A DNA stretch of 63,600 nucleotides, filler included, from a bacterium (lineage in GTDB: Bacteria; JALSQH01), in the NCBI GenBank assembly GCA_026985515.1. It is 7 parts of 7 records of this genome, joined end to end, with 100 filler letters (N's around TTAATTAATTAA, not from the genome) between each part and the next. Parts side by side here need not be neighbours in the genome. Positions count along the whole stretch, not along the records: positions 27,539 to 35,255 come from JALSQH010000216.1; 6 more parts are not named here. One strand, given 5' to 3'. Numbering within the stretch: the stretch's first letter is position 1; each line of letters opens with the position of its first letter. The notes beneath the pieces were generated by a model, which saw only the letters and a list, made by a program, of their open reading frames with translations, had not been told where the DNA came from and did no database searches. Made by a program: the position numbers and the translations under genes. This document shows positions 24,577 through 43,152 of the stretch, one piece after another.

Positions 24577-25343
24577 TGAGGATCACTGTTCTGGGTTCTG
24601 GAACATCTACCGGGGTTCCCGTAATAGGATGCAGCTGCGAGGTATGCAGATCTGAAAACCCCAAGAATAAAAGAACTCGGAGCAGTATCTACATTGTTGA
24701 AGATGAAACTCATATTCTTGTGGACACAACCCCCGATCTGAGATTTCAGGCTTTGAGGGAAAGGATTACCAGAATTGATGCGGTGATTTACACCCACACT
24801 CATGCCGATCACCTCCACGGCATAGATGAATTGAGAATCTTTAATTTTCTGAAAATGGGTCCAATTCCAATCTATTCCTACAGAGAACATCTTGAAGAAA
24901 TTAAAAGAAGATTCTCATATATATTTGATGGGAAATCTGCTCCAGGAGGTGGAAAACCGTGGCTGATTCCAGAAGAGGTGAAAGAGAACGAACCCTTCAA
25001 GATCGGTAGACTTGTCTTTATTCCATTAACACTGTACCATGGAAATATGAGGGTCCTTGGATTCAGGTTAAAAGATTTTGCTTACCTCACCGATTGTAAC
25101 AGGATCCCTGATGAAAGCATGGAAAAACTCAGGGGAGTCAGGGTCTTAATCATTGATGCTCTGAGATACTCTCCACACCCCACACATTTTTCTCTATCGG
25201 AAGCAATTGAAATTATAAATGTGATTTCTCCTGAAAAGGCGTATCTCACTCATATGAGCCACGATTTTGATCATGAAAAACTGAAAAATGAACTTCCAGA
25301 TAACGTTGAACCTTCATACGATGGAATGGTCATTGAGTTATGA
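24576..25343 (+). CDS. MBL-fold metallo-hydrolase, PhnP-like phosphodiesterase
   Basis: LGSGTSTGVPVIGCSCEVC, THTHADHLHG, YLTD, LTHMSH. Confidence 0.9.
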   Translation: MRITVLGSGTSTGVPVIGCSCEVCRSENPKNKRTRSSIYIVEDETHILVDTTPDLRFQALRERITRIDAVIYTHTHADHLHGIDELRIFNFLKMGPIPIYSYREHLEEIKRRFSYIFDGKSAPGGGKPWLIPEEVKENEPFKIGRLVFIPLTLYHGNMRVLGFRLKDFAYLTDCNRIPDESMEKLRGVRVLIIDALRYSPHPTHFSLSEAIEIINVISPEKAYLTHMSHDFDHEKLKNELPDNVEPSYDGMVIEL

Positions 25344-27438
25344 TTGAAGAAAATTACAAAAGATGGTTTCAGAAAAACAGAAGAAAATTCTCTGTTAAAT
25401 TATGTTCAGTTGAATTTTTAAGGAAACTTCCTTTTTACCTGATTTCTCTGGAAATTCTCCTCCTTTACAACCTTATCCTTTCACCCACACAACCATTGAC
25501 CAACATGATTATTACCGGACTATTGATTTCCCACTCCCTTTATCTTCTACTTAAAAATTGCGTTGCAATGTGGAAACTCCCCCGTGACACATTTCTCCTC
25601 AAAATGGAGAAAGAACTCTCCATTCCGCATAATCTGCTGAGTTCCGGAGAGACTATAGATGATCCCACCGTAAAAAGGATTCTCATAAAAAAGCTTCAAC
25701 CCCACACAGAGAAAGAGATAAAAATTCTACCACCAGCCATCAAGAAGAATTTAATTGCGACAACTTTAATCTTTTTTTTCACTGTAATCTATTCTCCCTC
25801 AACCTTTTTCAGAATAATTTTTTCATTGAATCAGGAAAAAAGTGGCAGTGGTACTGCAATTGTTAGCTGGGTAACCGACCTGAATTTTGAAATAAAACCT
25901 CCACCCTACACCGGACAGAAACCGTATGAACTTGAAGGTGTGGAAAAAATTCCCCTGCTCATGGGTTCAACGGTGACGATAAAATTCTCAACGACAGTTG
26001 AGGTGGATAAAGCTGAACTGGTTACTCCGGGTGGAAGAAGTATCTACTTCAAAAGGGACGGGGATATTTTTCTCACTTCCTTTACTCCTATTGAAAACGG
26101 GAAGTACAAAATCTTACTTGTAAAAAAGAGTAAAATTTACACCGACTCAACACAACCTTTTTTTGCTCTCAGAGAAGATAAACCTCCTGATGTAAAGATT
26201 CTCAAGCCCGAGAAAAATCTAACTGTAAAACTGGGAGAAAAGGTTGAATTCAGGGTAAGAGTAACTGATAACTATGGTATTCAGAAGTTGAAAGCTGTAA
26301 TGTTAACAGGAAACGAAAAGAAGGAAGAGGAACTGGAGTTAAATGAAGGTGAAAAATATGTTGAGAAAATCTGGTATTTTGACCCGGAAAAGGACGGTTT
26401 TCACGAGGGAGATACGGTGGTCATTCACTTTGAAGCAGAGGATAACAATAGTTTCAACGGACCCGGGATCGGAAAAAGCAGAGAAATAAAAATTGAGATA
26501 TTCAGTCCCGTAAAAGCGCACAGAAAACTGCTCAGAAAGGAACAGCACATCCTCGATCTCTTAGTGGATGCTCTTGATCTCTCCATAAGAATAATTGTTT
26601 ACAATGAGCAAAAGTCAGGGATGTGGAAAAAATTCAGGACTCAGATAATTCAACAGATCAGCATACTGCTACCCGAACTCAGAAATGATCAATTTACTTC
26701 AAAAGAGGTGGTAGCCTTTTTTGAAATCCTCAGGAGAAAACTTGCTTCTCTACCCGTCCCCCGCAAAGGAAAACTAAGAGATATTGAAGTGCTGGAACAT
26801 CTGATACTGAAATTAGATAACCTACTAAAAGATGAAAGATTTCAGCAAATAAGGTTGTATCAGGACCAGATAAATTTCCTGAGGGAAAAGCTACAGGATC
26901 TAATAAATCAGTACAGGCAATCCCATGACCCGGAAATATTTAGGGAGATTGAAGATACCTTGAGAGATCTTCAGCAAAAACTGAGTGAGCTACAGAACTT
27001 CATCAACGAAACAACTCCTTACCACCTTCCAGATCAATTTGTAAACTCTGAGGCATATAGGAATCTCTCCTCAGGAAGATTGAAGAGAGAAATCGAAAAA
27101 TTGAGGAAGAATCTTCAAAATATGGATAAAGAATCGGTAATAAGGGAGGCTGAGGATCTGCTCAGCAAACTCTCCCACTTCAATCAGGCTCTCTCAAAAG
27201 CTGAAGAGAAGTTTTCCGCATCCCTTCAAAGTGTAAATGCACAGCTGCAGCGGCTGGAAAAGGAATTGGAATTCATATCAAAGGAGCACAAAAAGTACAT
27301 GGAATCTCTTCGCCGCTACAACCGGAAGATTTCAAAATCTGCCTCAAAAAGAATAAGAAACATGATCAAAAGGATTCTGGACGAGATGAATTTAAGCATA
27401 CCTTCCTTTTATCTCTACTCACCCCCCATTTCGAAAAG
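25340..27438 (+). CDS. DUF4175-like membrane/coiled-coil protein (truncated by gap)
   Basis: N-terminal TMs, PPPYTG, EDKPPDV, TDNYGI, AEDNNSFNGPGIGKS, long coiled coil. Confidence 0.65.
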
Positions 27439-27538
27439 NNNNNNNNNNNNNNNNNNNNNNNNNNNNNNNNNNNNNNNNNNNNTTAATTAATTAANNNNNN
27501 NNNNNNNNNNNNNNNNNNNNNNNNNNNNNNNNNNNNNN
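27439..27538. other. Artificial scaffold spacer
   Basis: 100 nt: N run, TTAATTAATTAA (stops in all frames), N run. Confidence 0.98.
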
Positions 27539-28385: not shown

Positions 28386-29576
28386 TTATACCCCTATTTT
28401 GAGGGTAATTCCATATTTTTTTCCCAGGGAGAGGAGAGATTCAAGAAGATCAGATATTTCTTCGAAAGTGTGGGTGGCCATAAGAGATACTCTCAGCCTT
28501 GAGGTTCCAGGAGGTACAGTTGGTGGTCTTATTGCCCCCACAAAGAATCCCTTCTCATACAGATCCGCTGATATCTTAAGCGTGGTTTCCTCCCTCCCAA
28601 TGATAACAGGGACTATCTGGGATGAGAGATGAATCTCCCTTTTGAATAGTTCCTCTGCCCTCTTTTCAAAGAATCTGATGTTTTCCCATAATTTTTTTCT
28701 CAATCTTTCATCTTTTCTCATTATTTCCATTGCCTTTATAATGGCAGACGCAAGTGGAACCGGGTAGCCGGTGGTAAAAATAAAGCTTCTGCTCCTGTTA
28801 ATAAGGAAATTGATTAGATTTTTGCTTCCAGCCACATATCCTCCTGAAACTCCCACAGCCTTGCCAAGGGTGCCCATGTGTATTTCAATTTCATTTTGTA
28901 GACCCAGATGAAAGGCAAGTCCTCTTCCCTCTGGGCCGAAAATTCCCGTTGCATGTGCTTCATCTACCATTACAGCGGCATTGTACCGCCCGGCAATTTC
29001 AACTATTTCCTTTAAAGGTGCCAGATCTCCATCCATGCTGAAAACTGTGTCTGTGACTATCAATTTTTTTTCTGCCCTGCTTTTTGAAAGGAGTTCTTCC
29101 AGGTGTCCTGTGTCGCGATGTCTGTAGATGCTTATTTTTGCTTTACTCAGTCTGCAACCATCTATGATAGATGCATGGTTGAGCTGATCGCTGAATATTT
29201 CATCCTCCTTACCCATCAGGGCTGTTATAATACCGACATTTGTGTGATAGCCACTTGTATAAACCAGTGAAGCTTCCTTTTCTTTAAACTCAGCTATATA
29301 TTTTTCCAGCTGGTTGTGTGGTGAATGATTACCAACAATCAGTCTCGCCGAGCCAGAACCTACACCCCATTTTTCCGCAGAATTAACCAGAGCTTTTATC
29401 ACTTCGGGATGGGATGCGAGGCCAAGATAGTTGTTTGATGAAAAATTTATAACCTCTCTGCCATTTATAATGATTCTGCTTCGCTGGGGTGAGGATACTT
29501 CCCTCAATTCCCTGTAGAGACCCTTCTGTTTTATTTCATCTATTTTTTCCATTATCCACTTTTCTAACCAGCTCAT
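28386..29576 (-). CDS. bioF: 8-amino-7-oxononanoate synthase
   Basis: SSNNYLGL, LNHASIIDG, VFSMDGD, DEAHATG, GTLGKA; overlaps bioB. Confidence 0.93.
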   Translation of the reverse strand: MSWLEKWIMEKIDEIKQKGLYRELREVSSPQRSRIIINGREVINFSSNNYLGLASHPEVIKALVNSAEKWGVGSGSARLIVGNHSPHNQLEKYIAEFKEKEASLVYTSGYHTNVGIITALMGKEDEIFSDQLNHASIIDGCRLSKAKISIYRHRDTGHLEELLSKSRAEKKLIVTDTVFSMDGDLAPLKEIVEIAGRYNAAVMVDEAHATGIFGPEGRGLAFHLGLQNEIEIHMGTLGKAVGVSGGYVAGSKNLINFLINRSRSFIFTTGYPVPLASAIIKAMEIMRKDERLRKKLWENIRFFEKRAEELFKREIHLSSQIVPVIIGREETTLKISADLYEKGFFVGAIRPPTVPPGTSRLRVSLMATHTFEEISDLLESLLSLGKKYGITLKIGV

Positions 29577-30544
29577 AATATTTCCAGCCCCAGTTTAGTG
29601 ACCATTTTTATATCATCTTCAAAATTTCTTCCTTTTGTGGTGAGGTAGTTACCCACCATGAGTCCGGATACACCTGCAAGGATCAGATAAGATTGCAGAT
29701 CACCCATAAGGTATTCTCTTCCTCCAGCAATAAGAATGTGTTTATCGGGAAATATTAGTCTGTATACTGCAACACTTTTTAACGCATCGAGGGGGGTTAG
29801 ATAGTGAGCGTTTTCAAGAGGTGTTCCAGGAATGGGATGGAGAAAATTTATTGGAATTGAGTCAACATCAAGTTTTTTTAACTGATGAGCCATTTCTATT
29901 CTCTGTTCAAAACTCTCACCCAGACCAAAGATCCCTCCTGAACATATTTCCAGACCTATTTCCTTTGCTTTTTCAAGAACTCTTATTTTATCCTCCTGTT
30001 TGTGTGTTGTAACAATTCTGGGATAGTATGAAGCTGATGTTTCGAGGTTGTTGTGGTATCTTGAGAGTCCTGCATTTTTCAGATCTTTCAGAAAATCTTC
30101 ATCTATCACACCGAGGGATGCGTCTGGAAGAATCTCTGCCTTTTCTCTTATGAGTTCAACTGCCTTTAGGATTTTCATCTTTTGTCTTTTGGTAAAGGAG
30201 CCTCTTCCACTTGTGACGATGGAGAAACGCCTTGCTTTCCCTTTCTTTGCAATCAGTGCCCTGTTAAGAATTTCTTCAGGTTCCATAAGAGGATAGATGG
30301 GCATTTTTGCTTTTGACACAGATGACTGGGCGCAGAAGGCGCAATCCTCCGGACACAGCCCCGATTTGGCATTAACAATGGCGCAGAATTCAATTTTATT
30401 GGTAAAGTGTTTCTCTTTGATGGCGGTAGCAGTTGAAAAAAGGTTTAAAAGATCCGTTAGTTTATCTATTTTTTTTATTCTGTTAATGAGTTCCTCATCC
30501 AGATTGAGATCTTCAACCAGCTTTGAAAAATCCCTTCCCTGCAT
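29573..30544 (-). CDS. bioB: Biotin synthase
   Basis: KSGLCPEDCAFCAQS radical-SAM motif, YHNNLET, SIPINFL, GNYLTT. Confidence 0.95.
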   Translation of the reverse strand: MQGRDFSKLVEDLNLDEELINRIKKIDKLTDLLNLFSTATAIKEKHFTNKIEFCAIVNAKSGLCPEDCAFCAQSSVSKAKMPIYPLMEPEEILNRALIAKKGKARRFSIVTSGRGSFTKRQKMKILKAVELIREKAEILPDASLGVIDEDFLKDLKNAGLSRYHNNLETSASYYPRIVTTHKQEDKIRVLEKAKEIGLEICSGGIFGLGESFEQRIEMAHQLKKLDVDSIPINFLHPIPGTPLENAHYLTPLDALKSVAVYRLIFPDKHILIAGGREYLMGDLQSYLILAGVSGLMVGNYLTTKGRNFEDDIKMVTKLGLEIL

Positions 30545-30585: not shown

Positions 30586-31674
30586 TTATCTTGTAAGAAG
30601 GTTTTTAAATTGAGTGAAAAAGTCAGGTATTCCGACGTTTATTAAATATCCCGTTTCTAACTCATTAGAACTTATCTCCATTCCCAAGAGAAAATTTTCG
30701 ATGGTGGCAAGAATCAATAAATTTTGATTCGCCAACTGAATCAGGACATATTCCTTTATCGGTGGATATCCAATTTCTTTTTCTATTCTATGGTATGTGT
30801 TGAAAATAGATATAAAATTTGCCATAAAATCACCTTTATCACCTTTTTTAAATACAACTTCAGGAGAACTTGAAATATGAACAATTCCAATGTTTAATAA
30901 CGATGTTCCGAAAATATCTTGAAGTATTTGCTCTACCTTTGTTACCTCGCTATCTTGCTCATTGCTTTTAATAATTTCTTTCTGTTTTTCTCCTAAATTT
31001 CTTGTCTCTTCATCTATCTGTCTTGATGATTCCATAAGAATAAATTCAATTGGAGCTATTACCTCAGGTTTAACATTTTTGAATGGCAGTTGTTCGTAAA
31101 AATAACTCTTAAGTGAAAGAATCTTTTTTAAAGCATCAACTCCTGTCAGGTCACCGAAGTTGCATCTTATCAGATTCCCGTCCTGTATGTAAATTTCTCC
31201 TTCCCCTTCCCTTGAAACTACCTTTATTCTCGCACTTCCCTTTTCAAATCCGACTACTGAGAGTAGAGTTGGCAGATCAATTTTTACTTTTCCTGTTACT
31301 GGAGTTTCTTCATCTTTTCTTGATAATAGGAATTCTATTGATTCAATTAATTGCTCTTTGGTTACTGGTTTGCTTAACATGTAATCTATACCAATTTCTG
31401 CAATTCTCCTTGCGACTTTGTCATTTAAGTATCCGCTCACTACAAGAAATTTTTGCATAGGATTGCGTTGTTTAATGTTCTTAATCAATTTAATCCCATC
31501 CATTTTTGGCATAACTAAGTCGGTTATAATGAGATCATATTTGTCAGGAGAATATTCTTTAATCAAAGAAAAGGGATTATTGTACAATTTAATGTTATAT
31601 TTATCAGCAAGAAATGATTTATACTGTGACAATATCTTGTCCTCGTCATCTATGACGGCTATTCTGTAACTCAT
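30586..31674 (-). CDS. Response regulator: REC + PATAN/DUF4388 + C-terminal roadblock-like domain
   Basis: IDDE, TDLVMP, VSG, SKP (intact REC); GEIYIQDGNLI...ILMESSRQIDE (DUF4388-like); C-terminus homologous to 31671-32048. Confidence 0.8.
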   Translation of the reverse strand: MSYRIAVIDDEDKILSQYKSFLADKYNIKLYNNPFSLIKEYSPDKYDLIITDLVMPKMDGIKLIKNIKQRNPMQKFLVVSGYLNDKVARRIAEIGIDYMLSKPVTKEQLIESIEFLLSRKDEETPVTGKVKIDLPTLLSVVGFEKGSARIKVVSREGEGEIYIQDGNLIRCNFGDLTGVDALKKILSLKSYFYEQLPFKNVKPEVIAPIEFILMESSRQIDEETRNLGEKQKEIIKSNEQDSEVTKVEQILQDIFGTSLLNIGIVHISSSPEVVFKKGDKGDFMANFISIFNTYHRIEKEIGYPPIKEYVLIQLANQNLLILATIENFLLGMEISSNELETGYLINVGIPDFFTQFKNLLTR

Positions 31675-32048
31675 TTTCTGTTATCCTCTTTGAAAATATT
31701 ATTGAATTTCTTTATCATTTCAGGCAGAATGACATTTAAGAATAAGCCAAGAGGGATTTTCACGGAATCAAAAAGTATACTCCATTGATAGTGATCATTT
31801 GGTATCACCACAAGTTTTTTATCGTTTTTAAGGTCAAACAAATAATAATCACCAATTTTAGGAAAGTTTCCATCATGGAGTAATTTTTCAATTTTATAGG
31901 TTAACTCTGAGATTAATATACCGCCTTTTTTATGAAAATTCTTTCCAGCTACTATCTTTTTTTCTTTATTGGACCAGATAAATGTACTAACTAAGGAATC
32001 TTTTAATTCATCTTCCAGCGAAGCTAAAATTCCTTCTAATGGGCCCAT
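31671..32048 (-). CDS. Roadblock-like small protein
   Basis: 125 aa; GNFPKIGDYYLFDL...PLGLFLNVILP aligns with GYPPIKEYVLIQL...ETGYLINVGIP of the neighbour; ATGA overlap. Confidence 0.6.
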   Translation of the reverse strand: MGPLEGILASLEDELKDSLVSTFIWSNKEKKIVAGKNFHKKGGILISELTYKIEKLLHDGNFPKIGDYYLFDLKNDKKLVVIPNDHYQWSILFDSVKIPLGLFLNVILPEMIKKFNNIFKEDNRK

Positions 32049-32148
32049 TTTTAAAATCCAGTTTTATAAAAATTCTCCTTCCATACTTTTATTATAAACT
32101 TTTTTTTGTAAAATGAAAGTTTTCGGACAAATTGCTAATAAAGAGCCA

Positions 32149-33486
32149 TTAATCTCCAACAATACCTCTTATTATTTCATAATTACACTTTGCAACTGAT
32201 TCCAGATTATAGCCTCCCTCAAGAAGAAGAATTAGTCTTCCTGAAGCAAATTTTTCAGAGATTTCATTGATTATTTTTGCCATTTGATAGTAGGCATTTT
32301 CGCTGAGCATAAGACCTGTCATTTTCTCATCTCTGTGGGCATCCTGTCCAGCAGAAACAAGTATAATGTCAGGTTTGTACTCCTCTGCAATGTCATAAAC
32401 AATTTTAAATTTTTCAAGATATTCATCATCCTCAATAAGTGGTGGTAATGGAAAGTTACGGGTGTAACCTTTTCCTGGACCAACCCCGGTTTCTTCTTCA
32501 GAACCTGTATTGGGATAAAGGTTTCTCTGATGGAAGGAAACATACATGATTGGTTTGTCATATAAAATTTCCTGGGTGCCATCACCGTGATGAGCGTCCC
32601 AGTCTATTATCATTGGCCTGTATCCCTTTTCAAAGAGAGAAAGAGCCAGTCCAGCCATATTGTTGAAAAAGCAGAAACCCTTGGCCTCGTTTCTTGTGGC
32701 ATGATGTCCAGGTGGCCTGGCAAGCACAAAAATTTTTTTGTGTTCTTCCACTATTTCTCCAGCCAGCAGAGCACCACCGAAGGCTAATTTTGCAATGTCG
32801 TAGGTTTCTTTTGTTACGAAGTTGTTTCGTCCAAGAGGGGTAAGTGTCTCTGATGCCTTTTTTACTTTTTCCACAAGTTCTCTGGAGTGTACCTTGAGTA
32901 GTTCTTCCTCTGTTGCAGGTCTCGGAGGTATAAGGTTTAGTTTATGTAAAATACCCTTAATTCTGAGGTAGTTAATCGTATATGCAATTCTTTCGGCTTT
33001 CTCCGGATTGTAAGGATTGTCATAGATTAGGAATTTTTCTGTATATATCAGAGTAAGTGGTGCTTTTTTTATGATGGTGGGATATGGATCGTAAAGATCC
33101 ATAATTAAACCTCTCTGAGCGACTTTTTCAAACTTATAACCAAGTCTCTCATATATTTGGGGTCTTCCAGTTTGTACGAAGAGTTTCTTATAGCCCCGCT
33201 CTTTGAGATGGTCGATTAGCAGGTCAAGAGCTCCTTTACCATATCCTTTTCCTCTATAAAATTTATCTATTTCAAAGAACAGAAGTTCGGGGAGGTCATC
33301 TTCATGATATATAATCAGCATCCCCCCTACAATTTTACCTTCGGCTTTGATGGCAAGGTATTCTTTGTTATATTTTTTTTTTATTTTTTCGTAATAGGGT
33401 TTCCAGGGGAATTCATCCAGACGGATTTCAGTAAAAGGATAATCCTCTACCCTCGCTGTTAAAATTGGAATAAGCTCAACTATCAT
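32149..33486 (-). CDS. GNAT acetyltransferase - histone deacetylase family fusion
   Basis: GNAT motif A EIDKFYRGKGYG and IYERLGY; HDAC motifs RPPGHHA, GFCFFNN, DWDAHHGDGTQ, SAGQDAH, LEGGY. Confidence 0.92.
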   Translation of the reverse strand: MIVELIPILTARVEDYPFTEIRLDEFPWKPYYEKIKKKYNKEYLAIKAEGKIVGGMLIIYHEDDLPELLFFEIDKFYRGKGYGKGALDLLIDHLKERGYKKLFVQTGRPQIYERLGYKFEKVAQRGLIMDLYDPYPTIIKKAPLTLIYTEKFLIYDNPYNPEKAERIAYTINYLRIKGILHKLNLIPPRPATEEELLKVHSRELVEKVKKASETLTPLGRNNFVTKETYDIAKLAFGGALLAGEIVEEHKKIFVLARPPGHHATRNEAKGFCFFNNMAGLALSLFEKGYRPMIIDWDAHHGDGTQEILYDKPIMYVSFHQRNLYPNTGSEEETGVGPGKGYTRNFPLPPLIEDDEYLEKFKIVYDIAEEYKPDIILVSAGQDAHRDEKMTGLMLSENAYYQMAKIINEISEKFASGRLILLLEGGYNLESVAKCNYEIIRGIVGD

Positions 33487-33512
33487 ATAGGGATTCCTTC
33501 AATGTTGATAGG

Positions 33513-33536
33513 AAAAAAAGGGGGGAAGAATCCCCC
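33513..33536 (-). terminator. Intrinsic terminator after the roadblock gene
   Basis: Minus strand GGGGGA-TTCT-TCCCCC then CTTTTTTT. Confidence 0.7.
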
Positions 33537-33541
33537 GCCTA

Positions 33542-33910
33542 TTATCCTATTGTTTCATCAAAATCTTCCACAGCTTCGTCCAGCATCATTCTTACAAGAC
33601 CAAGATTCATGTCTTTGCTACCAATGACGAAGATGAATACTTTTGCCTTTTCTGAATGCATAAGAACTATTTTACCTTCTGTTCCTTCAATTGAGATGGT
33701 GTCTGGTTTCCCAAGGGCAGCTTCTGTTATAACTTTCGTTGCAGTGTTAACTGCATGAGAAATCAATGCAGCGATTTTGTCCTGGGCGTATTTTTTATCC
33801 AATTTTGATGCTATGATCATTCCATCTGTACCAACAATTGCAGCTCCCTCTGAACCTTCAATATGAGAAAGTTCATCAATGATTTTGTCGAATACTTCCT
33901 GTCGTCCCAT
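33542..33910 (-). CDS. Roadblock/LC7 (MglB-family) protein
   Basis: IEGSEGAAIVGTDGMIIAS, IEGTEGKIVL, NLGLVRM; AAGGAGG SD. Confidence 0.9.
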   Translation of the reverse strand: MGRQEVFDKIIDELSHIEGSEGAAIVGTDGMIIASKLDKKYAQDKIAALISHAVNTATKVITEAALGKPDTISIEGTEGKIVLMHSEKAKVFIFVIGSKDMNLGLVRMMLDEAVEDFDETIG

Positions 33911-33980
33911 TGTAACCTCCTTTCAATTTTCAATAATTAATATAATCACGTTTACAGGAAAAGTCAATATAATTACCTAT

Positions 33981-34316
33981 TCAAGAGGTTCTCATGAGAT
34001 TTTCAATTTCAAGAACAACTGCAAAGAAACTTGTATCTGATTTGTCAGTAATAGCTATTATTAGTAAATCTCTAAAAGTTTCACTTTGATTGAAAAAAAT
34101 GTGTTTGTCGTCAGTTACTATAAAACCTCTATAATTTGAAAAATCAAAGTTTTCACCTTCGAGTTTCCTTGTAAAATTTCTTAAAATTTTCTTTACAAGT
34201 TCTTTACTGTCCAGATTGGTTTCACCGAATATTGCAAGTTTCTCACTTGTTGCGTTATATATTAAAATTGAATCCAATCCAAACTCATTTATAATTGAAC
34301 TTATTTGCGGTTCCAT
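33981..34316 (-). CDS. Divergent roadblock-like protein; paralog of 57546-57890
   Basis: 111 aa with roadblock-like alpha/beta pattern; SIINEFGLDSILIYNA vs SLIKEFDLDNLLIADA. Confidence 0.55.
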   Translation of the reverse strand: MEPQISSIINEFGLDSILIYNATSEKLAIFGETNLDSKELVKKILRNFTRKLEGENFDFSNYRGFIVTDDKHIFFNQSETFRDLLIIAITDKSDTSFFAVVLEIENLMRTS

Positions 34317-34331
34317 TTCATTTCTCCTCTT

Positions 34332-35003
34332 TTAGTTTAAATTTTCAATCAGCGGTAAATATCGGTTCAATTCGAGTGTAACGATTCCTGTGGGGAAATT
34401 TTTATAAAATTTAAATATACCTACATTGTCTCTATGAATGATAAAAAGATATTTATTTAAATTTGTTTCAAAAAAAGAATATTTAACTTTATTTTTTAAG
34501 ATAGATGTTGAAAGTGTAATTAAATTTTCTAAAAAAGATTCCACAATTTCTCTCTCTTTGTTTTGGGTCTCAGTGAAATTTATTCTTTTCATGACTTTTG
34601 ACTTATTTTTATGGCATACTTTTATTTCATGGCTATATTCTTTTGATATATTTTCGGCAACTTTTATTAACCACTCTATAAATAATTTCTCATTACGGTT
34701 ATCATATCCTGATTTATTGTTTTCATCTTTTAGCCATTTAAGACTTTTTTGATGTAATATCTTGACAAGTTTTATTATTCCCCTTTTAAGATTCTCATTG
34801 GTTATCGTCTCATCATTATAGAATTTTTTGAAAGAAACGAAATCGCTATAGATAATTTCACCTTTGTGATAAATATGCGTGGACACAATTAATTTATTCG
34901 GTAAAACTTCTGTTTGAATGTGATAAAACCTGTTATTTAGGTTTAGATTCTCATTTATGCCGGGAATCGGGAAAATGTTATTTCTCTTAATAAGTGGTAA
35001 CAT
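34332..35003 (-). CDS. RomY-like N-terminal domain fused to roadblock-like domain; paralog of 57877-58548
   Basis: GINENLNLNNRFYHIQTE...THIYHKGEII; C-terminal FPTGIVTLELNRYL resembles the roadblock terminal helix; GGAGG SD. Confidence 0.55.
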   Translation of the reverse strand: MLPLIKRNNIFPIPGINENLNLNNRFYHIQTEVLPNKLIVSTHIYHKGEIIYSDFVSFKKFYNDETITNENLKRGIIKLVKILHQKSLKWLKDENNKSGYDNRNEKLFIEWLIKVAENISKEYSHEIKVCHKNKSKVMKRINFTETQNKEREIVESFLENLITLSTSILKNKVKYSFFETNLNKYLFIIHRDNVGIFKFYKNFPTGIVTLELNRYLPLIENLN

Positions 35004-35063: not shown

Positions 35064-35120
35064 ATTATATAACATAATTTTATTTTGTTAAGATTATAAA
35101 ACCTTTTTTTATTTTGTCAA
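35064..35120 (-). promoter_or_regulatory. Tandem sigma70 promoters of the roadblock locus
   Basis: TTGACA (35120-35115), 16 nt, TATAAT (35098-35093); also TTAACA (35091-35086), 16 nt, TATAAT (35069-35064). Confidence 0.7.
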
Positions 35121-39337: not shown

Positions 39338-39805
39338 TTAACAACCCTCTTCTTCCTCTTCTTCCTCACCTTTCTTGTGAGTTGACATGAACTTCTTCCA
39401 CCCGAGCCATCCACCTTTGAGATTATACACATTTTTATAACCCATCTGTTTCAGTGTGTAGGTTGCCAGTGCTCCCCTTCCTCCAGTCTTGCAGTAAACG
39501 ACTATCGTTGCATTTTTGTTGGGTATCTTTTTGGAAATTTTGAACTCAAGAAGACCCCTTGGAAGATTAATCGCACCATCAATGTGACCAGCGTTGTACT
39601 CAGAGGGTTCTCTCACATCCAGGAAAATGACACCTTTCTTTCCAAGAAGCTTGTAGGCATGGGCGGGTGAAATTTCTTTGATGTGTTTCTTTGCAGCCTT
39701 TACAAAATCCTTTGCTGTTTTGTATCTTCCCGCTTCACCAATACCAGCGTAGCCAATCACCAGGAAAAATGCTGCCAGCAGAGCTAAAACTTTTCCTTTC
39801 TTCAT
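39338..39805 (-). CDS. Exported single-domain rhodanese (Sud-like sulfurtransferase)
   Basis: Signal peptide; LDVREPSEY, GHIDGA, active loop CKTGGR, LKGG; tail GEEEEEEEGC. Confidence 0.88.
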   Translation of the reverse strand: MKKGKVLALLAAFFLVIGYAGIGEAGRYKTAKDFVKAAKKHIKEISPAHAYKLLGKKGVIFLDVREPSEYNAGHIDGAINLPRGLLEFKISKKIPNKNATIVVYCKTGGRGALATYTLKQMGYKNVYNLKGGWLGWKKFMSTHKKGEEEEEEEGC

Positions 39806-39820
39806 ATCAAAACCTCCTTT

Positions 39821-40651
39821 TTAATTGTTTTCCTCTTCCGGTAAAAGACCCATCTCTTTCGCTTTTTCCTCATACTCCTTCCTCTCCCTCTCTCTCACCT
39901 CTAATTCAAGCTTTTTCATCTCTTTCCACCACTTGAAATGATTGTGGTAGGCGTAAAGTTCATTCACCTTCCCCGTTATCATTGAAGCAAGGGATGGATG
40001 CTCCTCCCAGAGAACAGCAGCCATGAATATGTGAACAAACAGACCGGCAACAACCCCTCCTGCTGCAATGAAATGGAACACAATGGCCCATTTAACAGTC
40101 TCTGCGGAACCAATGTGAAAACTCATTATGAAACCGGTTATAATGAGAATAATAATCCCTCCAATAGCAACCATTGCAAACAATTTCTGCCCGGCGTTAT
40201 ACTCACCCTGGGGAGGCAGTTCAACTTTCATACCCAGAATTCCAAGGCCTCTGTTTATCAACCAGAGAATATCATCTCTATCGAGGACAAAATTCCTCCT
40301 GATAAACGGGATGGTGTAGTTCTTTATCCCAAAAAGATAGTTTACCACCAGAACAACAGACCAGATTATACCTACAAGTATGTGGTACTTCAGTAAATTT
40401 GCCCTCGTACCAAAAAGCTCAGAAACCATGTTGATCCACCAGTCAGGCATAAATTTGAAAAGGGTGGAATTTATAAGAGCAGAGCCTGTGAATAGCTGGA
40501 ATCCCCAGACTGCTGCGTTAAACCAGTGGGTCCATTTGGGTATAACATCATGTTTTTTCAAGTAATGAGTCCTGAGATACTCCTTCTCTTCTGGAGATAG
40601 AGGCACCGGTTTATCCTGTTTTAATAATCTTTCAATATTTACCTGCTGCAT
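39821..40651 (-). CDS. Cytochrome b membrane anchor (FdnI/PhsC type)
   Basis: THWFNA, KYH, GEYNAGQKL, VFH...VHIFMA, SMITG. Confidence 0.85.
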   Translation of the reverse strand: MQQVNIERLLKQDKPVPLSPEEKEYLRTHYLKKHDVIPKWTHWFNAAVWGFQLFTGSALINSTLFKFMPDWWINMVSELFGTRANLLKYHILVGIIWSVVLVVNYLFGIKNYTIPFIRRNFVLDRDDILWLINRGLGILGMKVELPPQGEYNAGQKLFAMVAIGGIIILIITGFIMSFHIGSAETVKWAIVFHFIAAGGVVAGLFVHIFMAAVLWEEHPSLASMITGKVNELYAYHNHFKWWKEMKKLELEVRERERKEYEEKAKEMGLLPEEENN

Positions 40652-40660
40652 CTCATCCCC

Positions 40661-41389
40661 CTATTCTTCAATTTTCGGCTCACCCTTTATGAGCTGGTAA
40701 ATTGCAGCAACTGTTACACCCAGGAAGGAGAGACCTGCTGCAACTCCCAGCAGAGGTCTGAATATTCTCCACACAGTTCCAGCAGTTGAAAACCTCGTCT
40801 TCCTGAGTGGCGCCTTTTCAAGCAACAGTTCCACCTGCTCCTTTTCTCCCATGTAAAAGACACTCGCACCATAATTAACTTCCCCTCTGTGCAGCGGGAC
40901 CGCCCCCTCTTTGTACACCAATCTGTACACCTCACTGTCAGGATCATCAAGATCTCCAAAAATCCTCGCTTCAGCGATACAGGTCTCCACACAGGCAGGC
41001 TCAAGACCTGCATCAACACGTGGCTGACAGAAAGTACACTTATCCACCACTCCAAGATCAGGATGTATGTACCTCGCTCCATAGGGGCATGCATCAGCAC
41101 AATATCCACATCCAATGCAGAGCTCCTGATCCACCAGAACCCTACCCTTTTCATCTTTATATGTGGCACCTGAGGGGCAGACCTTTATGCAGGGTGGATC
41201 TTCACAGTGCATGCAGAGTCCCGGATAAACAGCAGACTTGAGGTTGGGAAATTCTCCCACAGGTCCTATCTCCTTAACCCAGTCTCTGCTGTAACCTTCA
41301 GGAACATTCCACTCAGCCTTGCATGCAATAACACATGCTTTACAATCAACACATCTGTCAATATTCAAAACCATAGCATATCTTGCCAC
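40661..41389 (-). CDS. 4Fe-4S dicluster subunit (PsrB/PhsB type)
   Basis: CVDCKAC, CMHCEDPPC, CIGCGYC, KCTFC...PACVETC; C-terminal TM. Confidence 0.9.
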   Translation of the reverse strand: MARYAMVLNIDRCVDCKACVIACKAEWNVPEGYSRDWVKEIGPVGEFPNLKSAVYPGLCMHCEDPPCIKVCPSGATYKDEKGRVLVDQELCIGCGYCADACPYGARYIHPDLGVVDKCTFCQPRVDAGLEPACVETCIAEARIFGDLDDPDSEVYRLVYKEGAVPLHRGEVNYGASVFYMGEKEQVELLLEKAPLRKTRFSTAGTVWRIFRPLLGVAAGLSFLGVTVAAIYQLIKGEPKIEE

Positions 41390-41392
41390 GAC

Positions 41393-43152
41393 TTACCTCA
41401 CTTTTTCGATTTTCACAAAATTTACTCTGAGTCCCTGTGTCCCTGAAATTGGATCAGTCGCATATCTTGTCATCAATCCATTGTCATCAATCCCCCTGTT
41501 GTAAGCCAGTCTCATGTATGGAGACTTATGTCCAAATCCATGAACAATATAAACACAATCCTTCCTTATACCCTTTGTGACTTTTGCCACAGATATTCCA
41601 CTCTTCACTCCATCCTGATTTACAAGTCTGACTCTATCACCATCCTTTATTCCAAGCTTCTTTGCCACCTCTTCATTGATCCATACGGGATTAATACTCT
41701 GCAGCTCCATTAGCCACTGGTTGTTCTGAGTTCTGGAAAATGTATGGTATGGAGATCTACCGTAGATGAGCCTGAAATAACCCTCTGGCGGCTCTTCATG
41801 GTGCCTGTAAACAGGCAGTGGGTCAAAACCTTTTTCTTCAAGTTCCGATGAGTAGAGTTCAAATTTCCCGGAAGGAGTCTTTATACGCCATCCCTCAGTT
41901 GAAAGATCCTCTGGAAAATAGGGATAAGCTTTTTTCTTTATTACCCCTTTTCTCTTCAATTCATCAAAATCAATTCCACCCTTTGCACATCTCATTCTCA
42001 GATACTCTTCAAAATTTTTATATGGAAAATACTCGCTGAGGCCGAGTCTTATGCCCAGCTCCCTCGCTATCCACCATCCCGGCCTCGCCTCGTAGAGAGG
42101 ATCAACAACAGGCTGTCTCAATGCCACAAATTTTTCTTTCGCAGGAAGAGAAACGAGATCATCATACCTCTCAAGATAGGTAGCTTCTGGTAACACAACA
42201 TCCGCATAAAGGGTTGCCTCAGTGGGTAATACCTCTACCACGACCAGAAGGTCAAGTTTTTCAATAGCTTTTATGGTCTTCTCCCTTCCGGGAAAACTTT
42301 TAAGAATATTCTGTGCATATACAAACCACCCCTTGATTGGATATGGCTTACCAGTTAATGTGGCATCCCGCATCTGGACAGTGAGGCCTTCCCCCTTGCT
42401 TGCAAAGGGGTAAACGGTTCCGGCGCCATCTGCCTTCGGGACTGATGGTCTTGGATATGGAGGATGCTTTACATGGGGAATTCTCCATTTCACAGGGAGG
42501 AAAACACCCCCTTTCCTTCCCCAGGCACCCAGAAGAGCTGTAAGAATTGCCATCGCCCTGCTTCGCTGAACATCGTCCCCATACCAGGCTGTATGTCTCC
42601 CGGGATTAATTGCCACAGCAGGCTTACCCTCTCCCATAACCCTTGCAGTTTCAACAATCAATTCAGCAGGAATCTCAGTTATCTTTGACGCCCATTCAGG
42701 GGTATATTGCTGGACGTGTTCCTTCAATTGATCAAGACCAACTGTCATCGTGTCCACATACTCCTCATCGTACAATTCCTCATTTATAATCACATTTATC
42801 CATGCTAAAAGAAGAGCGAGATCAGTTCCAGGTTTTATGGGCAACCAGTAGTCGGATTTACTTGCTGCCATGGAGTATCTTGGATCAACCACAATAAGTT
42901 TTGCACCCCTCGCAATCCCCCTTGCAAAACTCCTCACATATCCCGTGTGAATATTCTCCCCAACATGACCGCCAATGAGCACTATTACATTCGCATTTTC
43001 AAAATCCGCCCTCTCATTGGCTGGAGGCATTCCAAATGTGAGCTCATATCCCACATCCCTTGCCCCCTTACACTGTCCGAAGGATGGAGCTGCATTGTTT
43101 CTCGAACCATAAGCCTTCATAAGGTGCCTGAATAAACCTCCTCCGGCACCAT
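41393..43152 (-). CDS. Molybdopterin oxidoreductase catalytic subunit, polysulfide/thiosulfate reductase (PsrA/PhsA) type; 5' end truncated
   Basis: Frame open to the gap (GAGGGLFRHLMKAYGS); SFGQC Mo-ligand region, VVDPR, PGTDLA, ADVVLPEATYLER, HTFSRTQNN. Confidence 0.85.

Follow-up and report, generated by a model that had tools for sequence, protein, structure and literature searches.

Forward and reverse covalent modification are carried by a single polypeptide in GlnE, GlnD and AceK, in which the direction is set by effectors or a small partner. In the case of acetylation, AcuA and AcuC of Bacillus subtilis pair a GNAT acetyltransferase with a classical zinc deacetylase: AcuA is the writer and the HDAC-type AcuC the eraser of acetyl-coenzyme A (CoA) synthetase, and a small accessory protein, AcuB, is reported to tune AcuC (PMC13039410). 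Bacterial GNAT acetyltransferases have been sorted into types I–V, none of which has a deacetylase domain in the available sections of two reviews (PMC6456759, PMC8556138), and the main text of a survey of bacterial classical deacylases, in its available sections, does not mention GNAT fusions (PMC11532494). A literature search, outside of which lie the supplements of Graf et al. 2024, returned no paper on a prokaryotic GNAT-HDAC fusion. Here we describe such a fusion in a 63,600-nucleotide stretch of DNA (the window) from the bacterial assembly GCA_026985515.1. A gene on its minus strand (32149..33486) encodes a GNAT domain and a zinc-dependent deacetylase domain in one chain, and directly upstream lies a gene for a Roadblock/LC7 protein that accompanies the fusion at other loci as well.

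The window protein resembles AcuA and AcuC in that a GNAT is paired with a classical zinc deacetylase. However, its two enzymes form one chain, its deacetylase is nearer to HDAC6 and the bacterial HdaH proteins than to class I, its GNAT is a RimI-like domain of about 130 residues, and its accessory gene encodes a Roadblock/LC7 protein rather than a CBS/ACT protein. The scan of the neighbours turned up neither an acs-like nor a CBS/ACT gene. We thus rejected an AcuA/AcuC identity for the fusion on three grounds, namely the non-class-I deacetylase, the RimI-like GNAT and the absence of acs or acuB linkage among those neighbours. The likeness to GlnE, GlnD and AceK is an analogy of mechanism only, as both the chemistry and the folds differ, and it does not imply a common substrate for the two activities of the fusion.

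The fusion gene is an open reading frame (ORF) for 445 residues, with its stop codon at 32149-32151, two Pfam domains and 33 full-length homologues. This confirms the claim, made in an earlier sequence-only reading of the window, that a single polypeptide joins a GNAT to a zinc deacetylase. The start codon is ATG, and the same frame is open for just four codons further upstream (449 residues), so the start cannot be much further upstream; the closest homologues begin at the same methionine. The sequence motifs on which the earlier reading relied are all present in the protein: FYRGKGYG at residues 76-83, YERLGY at 112-117, PPGHHA at 258-263, DAHHGDG at 297-303, GQDAH at 380-384 and EGGY at 423-426.

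That reading had also raised the possibility of an assembly artefact at the junction of the two domains. The genome is a metagenome bin of 268 contigs, and several contigs are strung together in the window, with an N/TTAATTAATTAA spacer at 27439-27538 between the end of contig C213 (27438) and the start of contig C216 (27539). Listed ORFs that span this join, such as 25340..27490, are artefacts. The fusion gene lies 4.6 kb inside C216, contains no N, and reads through the linker without a stop codon or frameshift. In a second assembly (L091) the fusion gene and six neighbours have a 100% identical sequence. We also compared the fusion region with the assembled contigs of four sequencing runs. 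A 9194-nt contig of run X1, possibly the source contig, spans 31600-34000 with zero differences, and run X2, which belongs to another study, contributes a 421-nt contig that spans 32826-33246, also with zero differences, and bridges the linker codons (33055-33093). Finally, the 33 homologues, which come from several sources at 40-81% identity, share the same two-domain architecture. The second assembly, the bridging contig and the homologues rule out an artefactual junction, and the chance that assembly or gene calling has joined two separate genes is negligible. In both X1 and X2, contigs of other organisms pile up to a depth of at most 163 over the 38 bases at 32567-32604, which encode DWDAHHGDGTQ; this is a conserved word, not a repeat within this genome.

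The deacetylase domain (residues 145-445; 32152..33054, minus strand) was identified by Pfam, PDB search and VIA-align. The Pfam family Hist_deacetyl (PF00850) matches residues 161-440 with an E-value of 5.5e-79 (266 bits). The tandem histidines, the Asp-His-Asp zinc ligands and the catalytic tyrosine align with the corresponding motifs of HDAC6, and H261, H262, D295, D297, H299, D382 and Y426 are invariant in all 34 fused proteins, that is, the window protein and its 33 homologues. Judged from its sequence, this half has all of the residues required of a classical zinc deacetylase, and the earlier description of its active site as intact holds. A short linker (residues 132-144; 33055..33093, minus strand), variable in both sequence and length, connects it to the GNAT domain; the mean predicted local distance difference test (pLDDT) score of residues 131-140 is 74, below that of the adjoining blocks. 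Averaged over the 33 homologues, identity to the window protein is 32% in the linker, 47% in the GNAT domain and 57% in the deacetylase domain. Because of the identity retained in the two domains and of the residues that are invariant throughout the family, both halves are under purifying selection.

The closest solved structures of the deacetylase domain are those of bacterial HdaH/Kdac1 proteins (Pseudomonas aeruginosa PA3774, Acinetobacter baumannii Kdac1 and Klebsiella pneumoniae HdaH) and of the second catalytic domain (CD2) of HDAC6. In a PDB sequence search the window protein matched HDAC6 CD2 (1.2e-45), Kdac1 (7.7e-45) and PA3774 HDAH (1.3e-43), with class I HDAC2 at 6.5e-33, and no chain named acetylpolyamine amidohydrolase (APAH) is among the 60 matches listed. 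VIA-align of residues ~140-445 gave Z scores of 42.7-45.2 to 5ji5 (45.2), KpHdaH (44.5), 5zmp, HDAC10 (43.2), HDA15 and HDAC6 (CD2, 42.8), compared with 38.1 to PsApaH, and the best fold matches have a root-mean-square deviation of 1.4-1.8 over about 300 residues. Target-normalised template modelling (TM) scores from Foldseek are ~0.78-0.80 to the bacterial HdaH/Kdac1 and HDAC6 CD2 structures, for which the VIA-align Z scores are 42.7-44.5. These proteins have the same catalytic set of His-His, Asp-His-Asp and Tyr as the fusion. However, identity to them is 26-36%, the bacterial chains listed are about 340-380 residues long, near the size of the deacetylase domain, and the fusion family has the motif AGQD where the aligned HDAC6 has GFD. 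Asn276 of the fusion occupies the position of a class I aspartate whose role is described by Lammers (2021). In the classification of Graf et al. 2024 the bacterial HdaH/Kdac1 proteins form 'cluster 1' and APAH 'cluster 4'. At the seventh position after the zinc aspartate, a leucine in HDAC6, to which (rather than to HDAC10) the alignment was made, 29 of the 34 fused proteins have Leu, Val, Met or Ile and none has Glu. We take this position to be the site of the gatekeeper glutamate of HDAC10. Taken together, the sequence and fold comparisons point to an HDAC6/HdaH-like, class-II-like deacetylase rather than an APAH-like one.

The GNAT domain comprises residues 1-131 (33094..33486, minus strand) and is supported by Pfam, AlphaFold, VIA-align and invariant residues. 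The Pfam family Acetyltransf_1 (PF00583) matches residues 21-117 (E-value 4.8e-12; 46.6 bits against a cut-off of 20.7). AlphaFold models have a mean pLDDT of 89.6 and a predicted TM score (pTM) of 0.76 for the whole fusion, and a pLDDT of 90.1 for the N-domain alone. The order of elements in the models is strand 1, helices, strands 2-4, helix 3, strand 5, helix 4 and strands 6-7, which is the canonical GNAT order. In VIA-align searches with the N-domain all 50 entries listed are GNATs (Z 10.0-11.9, 96-114 residues aligned), the top three being a Thermus acetyltransferase, RimI and NAA80, and the earlier assignment of a GNAT fold is upheld. Considering sequence and fold together, the best matches are RimI (5isv; 3.3e-6, Z 11.7), 6wqb, NAA80, Ard1 and Naa50.

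Ten residues of the GNAT half are invariant in all 34 proteins (E25, P27, W28, E72, R78, G81, G83, Q105, T106 and Y112), and they mark the landmarks of the domain: an EFPW motif (25-28), E72 on strand 4, a P-loop (R78-x-x-G81-x-G83), Q105-T106, and Y112. The P-loop reads R78-G-K-G81-Y-G83 in the window protein and fits the motif A consensus Q/R-x-x-G-x-G/A, which is described as contacting the CoA pyrophosphate (Lammers 2021). In an HMMER alignment of the family profile to Escherichia coli RimI, EFPW aligns with AFPW, Y112 with Tyr115 and Q105 with Glu103. We take Glu103 to be the proposed general base of RimI and Tyr115 its proposed general acid. The domain therefore shares with RimI and the N-terminal acetyltransferases the FPW acceptor-loop motif, the P-loop and the Tyr115 equivalent. 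However, it is shorter (~130 compared with ~150 residues), has glutamine in place of Glu103, and is never found alone.

The position of Gln105 opposite Glu103 casts doubt on full transferase activity. Acetyl transfer may be slow, may proceed via E72, or may be absent; the invariant E72 on strand 4 could be a substitute general base. The GNAT half could thus be a weak catalyst, an N-alpha rather than an N-epsilon acetylase, or an acetyl-CoA sensor. Under the last of these, a non-transferring GNAT would tune or target a protein deacetylase in cis, either by sensing acetyl-CoA/CoA or by docking, and the fusion would be a natural acetyl-CoA-gated deacetylase. The invariant glutamine fits this proposal, as the CoA P-loop (R78, G81, G83) is nevertheless strictly retained, and available sections of reviews describe both bacterial GNATs with fused regulatory domains and acetyl-CoA-binding domains that act allosterically (PMC6456759, PMC8556138). 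However, several of the nearest solved GNATs, which have GTG at the position of RimI Glu103, likewise lack the glutamate, and a pure CoA sensor would not need the invariant Y112, E72 and EFPW. We consider an eraser of this kind rather unlikely, yet worth keeping in view. The sequence-only reading spoke of opposing activities, a wording that presumes one acetyl group shared by both domains, which may not be the case.

The fused proteins form a single family. In a quick IQ-TREE analysis of deacetylase domains, all 34 fused proteins group in one clade with respect to the 77 closest stand-alone relatives (Shimodaira-Hasegawa-like approximate likelihood ratio test 99). The stand-alone rows were those of 290-420 residues, 3 of 80 rows (P0041-P0120) outside this range being omitted, and the tree was drawn without HDAC6-like eukaryotic rows. 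A profile of the N-domain searched against 1.84 billion representatives gave five matches, four with E-values of 1e-30 or lower and one at 1e-18, every one a fused protein or a truncated or frameshifted piece; the next match after a gap is a generic GNAT at 8.9e-11. None of the 18 longer proteins among the top N-domain matches has a deacetylase domain. These results show a single origin of the fusion family and a GNAT subfamily that exists only within the fusion.

The family is rare, with about 35 clusters among 5.8 billion proteins. A metagenome scan with the N-domain alignment gave nine loci, of which four are fused (one from the window's own organism) and five were dropped as short chance matches. 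A genome scan with the full-length alignment picked patterns of the deacetylase domain and yielded 79 stand-alone deacetylase loci, later used as controls, and one fused locus. Among species-representative genomes searched with the N-domain profile (E ≤1e-15), only the starting genome itself matched, both in the phylum sample around the L011 genome (1 of 401, with 10 candidates scored per genome) and in its order (1 of 70). Similarly, no match spanning the whole fusion protein was found in 40 relatives of the window genome. Source names of family members include Thermodesulfobacteriota, Candidatus Electrothrix gigas and Syntrophaceae.

The most informative feature of the locus, which is absent from the sequence-only reading, is the conserved Roadblock partner. 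The gene directly upstream of the fusion, on the same strand (33542..33910, minus), encodes a 122-residue MglB-like Roadblock/LC7 protein (PF03259; 36.2 bits, cut-off 23). A Roadblock gene lies directly upstream of the fusion and on the same strand in all five fused loci for which contigs are available (the window, L092, L011, L093 and L094), and its homologues are 40-80% identical. In L093 the gene is cut by the contig end. In L094 the Roadblock is instead the C-terminal domain of a 472-residue REC-DUF4388 (PATAN)-Roadblock/LC7 protein, encoded directly upstream of the fused enzyme (L094:3882-5300, plus strand), and a second Roadblock copy is nearby. The same locus also contains genes for a PAS histidine kinase and a sigma-54 response regulator, with a single-domain REC gene downstream. 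As a control, all ORFs of 105 loci were searched by tblastn and with a hidden Markov model of nine partners, and matches were found in fused-family loci only; none of the 79 stand-alone deacetylase loci (L012-L090, flanks of at most 6 kb) gave one. In addition, the longest contig given for member P0006 and for the Roadblock homologue P0273 is in each case 80407 nt, which hints at a shared contig, no more.

The Roadblock partners have invariant residues D44, K45, E75, G76 and K80. Seven of the nine aligned rows begin with MG or MA; the eighth, P0273, contains MGKQE behind a probably mis-called upstream start, and the ninth is the internal domain. Prediction of a complex between the fusion and Roadblock proteins scored 0.00, to which we give no weight either way.

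MglB homologues have been found near PATAN proteins, and 328 of 749 of them are 'orphans' without MglA, none characterized, according to the available sections of Wuichet and Sogaard-Andersen 2014, in which an MglA GTPase within four genes is the criterion of a coupled system (PMC4316618). The window cluster is similar in that a Robl_LC7 gene and a REC-DUF4388 regulator occur together. However, it differs in that no MglA-like GTPase is found among the scanned neighbours: no GTPase family appears in Pfam scans of 18 of the listed ORFs of at least 90 residues between 23761 and 43120, in which three small neighbours match no family. An association of MglB/Roadblock proteins with response regulators that contain PATAN domains was reportedly noted by Makarova in 2006. 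A Ras-family search of the whole window genome gave weak matches in long ORFs only, and the control was likewise positive in 13 of 14 genomes. On the Pfam scans of the neighbours, the window Roadblock would be an 'orphan' MglB homologue. Our literature search found no paper linking a Roadblock protein (orphan MglB) to a deacetylase or acetylation enzyme.

Fusions of GNAT and HDAC domains are as such common in databases. At least 16 of the 30 nearest large clusters in the ESM Atlas carry both PF00850 and PF00583, with lengths of 469, 597, 610 and 708 residues among them, and one cluster of 927 residues adds an acetyl-CoA hydrolase/transferase domain. An example of the commoner family (~580-610 residues) is a 578-residue protein at L103:1066-2799 of genome G029. 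Like the window protein, this uncharacterized protein is a single chain that begins with a GNAT-like region and ends with a deacetylase fold. However, its deacetylase is APAH-like (9gkz, 3.5e-69; 3q9b, 2.5e-55), APAH chains being its top five PDB matches, and its N-terminal region of about 265 residues has a sub-threshold GNAT score of 20.6 bits. In a BLASTP comparison the similarity of the two proteins is confined to 230 residues of the deacetylase core (33% identity), with no alignment of their GNAT parts (E-value 0.74). No Roadblock gene was found at the L103 locus. We therefore rejected membership of the window protein in the APAH-type family, with which it has no full-length similarity and from which its best PDB relatives differ. 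The window protein instead represents a second and much rarer fusion of independent origin, set apart as a variant by its Roadblock partner, the confinement of its GNAT subfamily to the fusion, and its HDAC6-like deacetylase. The statement in the sequence-only reading that such fusions exist but are little characterized agrees with the Atlas clusters, the L103 example and the lack of a characterized case in the literature.

The existence of the APAH-type fusions is also a point in favor of a small-molecule enzyme, which would act on a polyamine, N-epsilon-acetyl-lysine or a beta-lysine derivative, either cycling it or carrying out two steps of a pathway. Thermophiles rely on unusual polyamines, and two genes of the window genome (C220:3074-6445 and C120:21-2810) score above the curated cut-off for reverse gyrase. 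The organism is thus plausibly a thermophile or hyperthermophile, in keeping with the earlier suggestion, and run X1 is labelled 'hydrothermal vent metagenome'. Furthermore, the HDAC10 fold score is on a par with that of HDAC6, and a preprint, in its available part, reports that HDAC6 CD1 deacetylates free acetyl-lysine. However, the similarity to the APAH-type fusion is limited to the deacetylase core, APAH chains are absent from the matches listed for the window protein where they head those of L103, and the position taken as the HDAC10 gatekeeper is never Glu in the family. The genomic context does not fit either, as none of the five fused loci has a polyamine or lysine-pathway gene and the conserved neighbors are Roadblock and REC-PATAN proteins. 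We regard a small-molecule enzyme as improbable overall. A polyamine substrate in particular is disfavored, because the predicted relationship of the deacetylase is to HDAC6/HdaH rather than APAH and the conserved neighbors are signaling proteins.

We favor, at slightly less than even confidence, a writer and eraser of protein acetylation that works with the Roadblock/PATAN module. In this proposal the minimal RimI/NAT-like GNAT, a predicted acetyl-CoA binder, and the zinc amidohydrolase that follows the short variable linker would write and erase acetyl marks on a component of that module from within one chain. The Roadblock protein, with its invariant K45 and K80, would be the first candidate target, and the balance of writing and erasing would be set by acetyl-CoA/CoA at the GNAT site. 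A protein substrate is suggested by the HDAC6/HdaH-like deacetylase, the lack of a glutamate at the gatekeeper position, the RimI/NAT type of the GNAT, and the signaling neighbors. The fusion is also the only PF00850 gene in the window genome.

Several observations weigh against this proposal. The invariant Gln105 at the general-base position of RimI is a classic inactivating substitution. RimI-like GNATs are mainly N-alpha acetylases, and an HDAC would not reverse such marks. The 2.36-Mb window genome has four sirtuins (SIR2 family; on C118, C241, C148 and C34) which could cover general deacetylation, in which case the fusion would not have to supply a protein eraser. The synteny rests on five loci, and roughly 28 other members are without contig data. 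In L092 an ORF of 146 residues intervenes between the Roadblock and fusion genes. In the window a terminator-like hairpin, a pattern match only, parts the Roadblock gene from the enzyme gene. The remaining neighbors vary by locus: L011 has a carbonic anhydrase, L092 an IS200-like gene.

The N-alpha preference of RimI-like enzymes suggests a further possibility, that the two domains have complementary activities on one partner. The target of the GNAT would be an N-terminal alpha-amine, such as that of the Gly or Ala with which the Roadblock protein starts once its methionine is removed, and the deacetylase would remove N-epsilon-acetyl groups. The best matches of the N-domain are N-terminal acetyltransferases, the alignment of EFPW with RimI AFPW points the same way, and a suitable start is found in the seven MG or MA rows and in the MGKQE of P0273. 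However, the Roadblock domain of L094 lies inside the REC-PATAN-Roadblock protein and lacks a free N-terminus, Gln occupies the general-base position, and RimI is also reported to acetylate lysines. A division of labor of this kind seems distinctly unlikely.

Going beyond a writer and eraser of protein acetylation, the fusion and the Roadblock protein might together form an acetylation switch that reads acetyl-CoA/CoA, sets the acetylation of the orphan Roadblock or the REC-PATAN regulator, and so couples carbon and energy status to polarity, motility or a GTPase-type output. This is a speculative extension that we consider improbable. Were it true, the system would be an acetylation analogue of GlnE/PII or bifunctional histidine kinases, and would give orphan prokaryotic Roadblock proteins a first function. 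The family raises the question of whether acetylation in some prokaryotes has a dedicated switchable enzyme of its own, comparable to those of phosphorylation and adenylylation. It offers a compact (445 residues) and probably thermostable test case with a defined candidate partner, the 122-residue Roadblock protein, that can be tested in vitro. It is also a lead to the function of the orphan MglB/Roadblock proteins, all of them uncharacterized according to PMC4316618.

The fusion and Roadblock genes are part of a cluster of genes on the same strand. The terminator-like element in the 55-nt gap between them (33521..33536, minus strand), found in a consensus scan, is a GC hairpin (GGGGG...CCCCC) followed by a T run, and it might give the two genes different expression levels. 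The second gene downstream of the fusion (30586..31674, minus strand) encodes a response regulator with REC and DUF4388 domains, identified by Pfam, and a tail of 140 residues of unknown family. DUF4388 is described as the PATAN domain. A REC-PATAN regulator occurs at two fused loci, the window and L094, where it is fused to Roadblock. Between the fusion and the regulator is a gene for a 125-residue protein (31671..32048, minus strand) that has no Pfam family and did not turn up at the other fused loci. Two small, lineage-specific genes for proteins of 111 and 223 residues (33981..35003, minus strand), also without a Pfam family, stand at the head of the cluster; their GC content is 25-32%, compared with about 40% in the fusion gene, and they have no homologue in the other fused loci. 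A Roadblock-like identity was rejected for the 125- and 111-residue proteins and the C-terminal 144 residues of the regulator, for which profile-profile probabilities were below 1%. Pfam searches at E ≤10 with the 125-, 111- and 223-residue proteins and the regulator tail gave chance-level matches only. Upstream of the cluster is a sigma-70-like promoter match, TTGACA and TATAAT separated by 16 nt (35093..35120, minus strand), which is a 12/12 consensus match only.

Beyond the promoter match, the segment 35411-38606 encodes a TPR and Ser/Thr protein kinase (652 residues, plus strand) and a GAF and adenylate/guanylate cyclase protein (415 residues, minus strand), and the region beside the Roadblock/fusion cluster looks like a signaling island. 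On the other side, directly downstream of the response regulator and on the same strand (28386-30544), are genes for a BioB-like protein with radical-SAM and BATS domains and for a class I/II aminotransferase, possibly BioF-like, both of which look unrelated to the acetylation module. Finally, 39338-43120 encodes a molybdopterin oxidoreductase, a 4Fe-4S dicluster protein, a cytochrome b561-type membrane subunit and a rhodanese, a layout that resembles a polysulfide or thiosulfate reductase.

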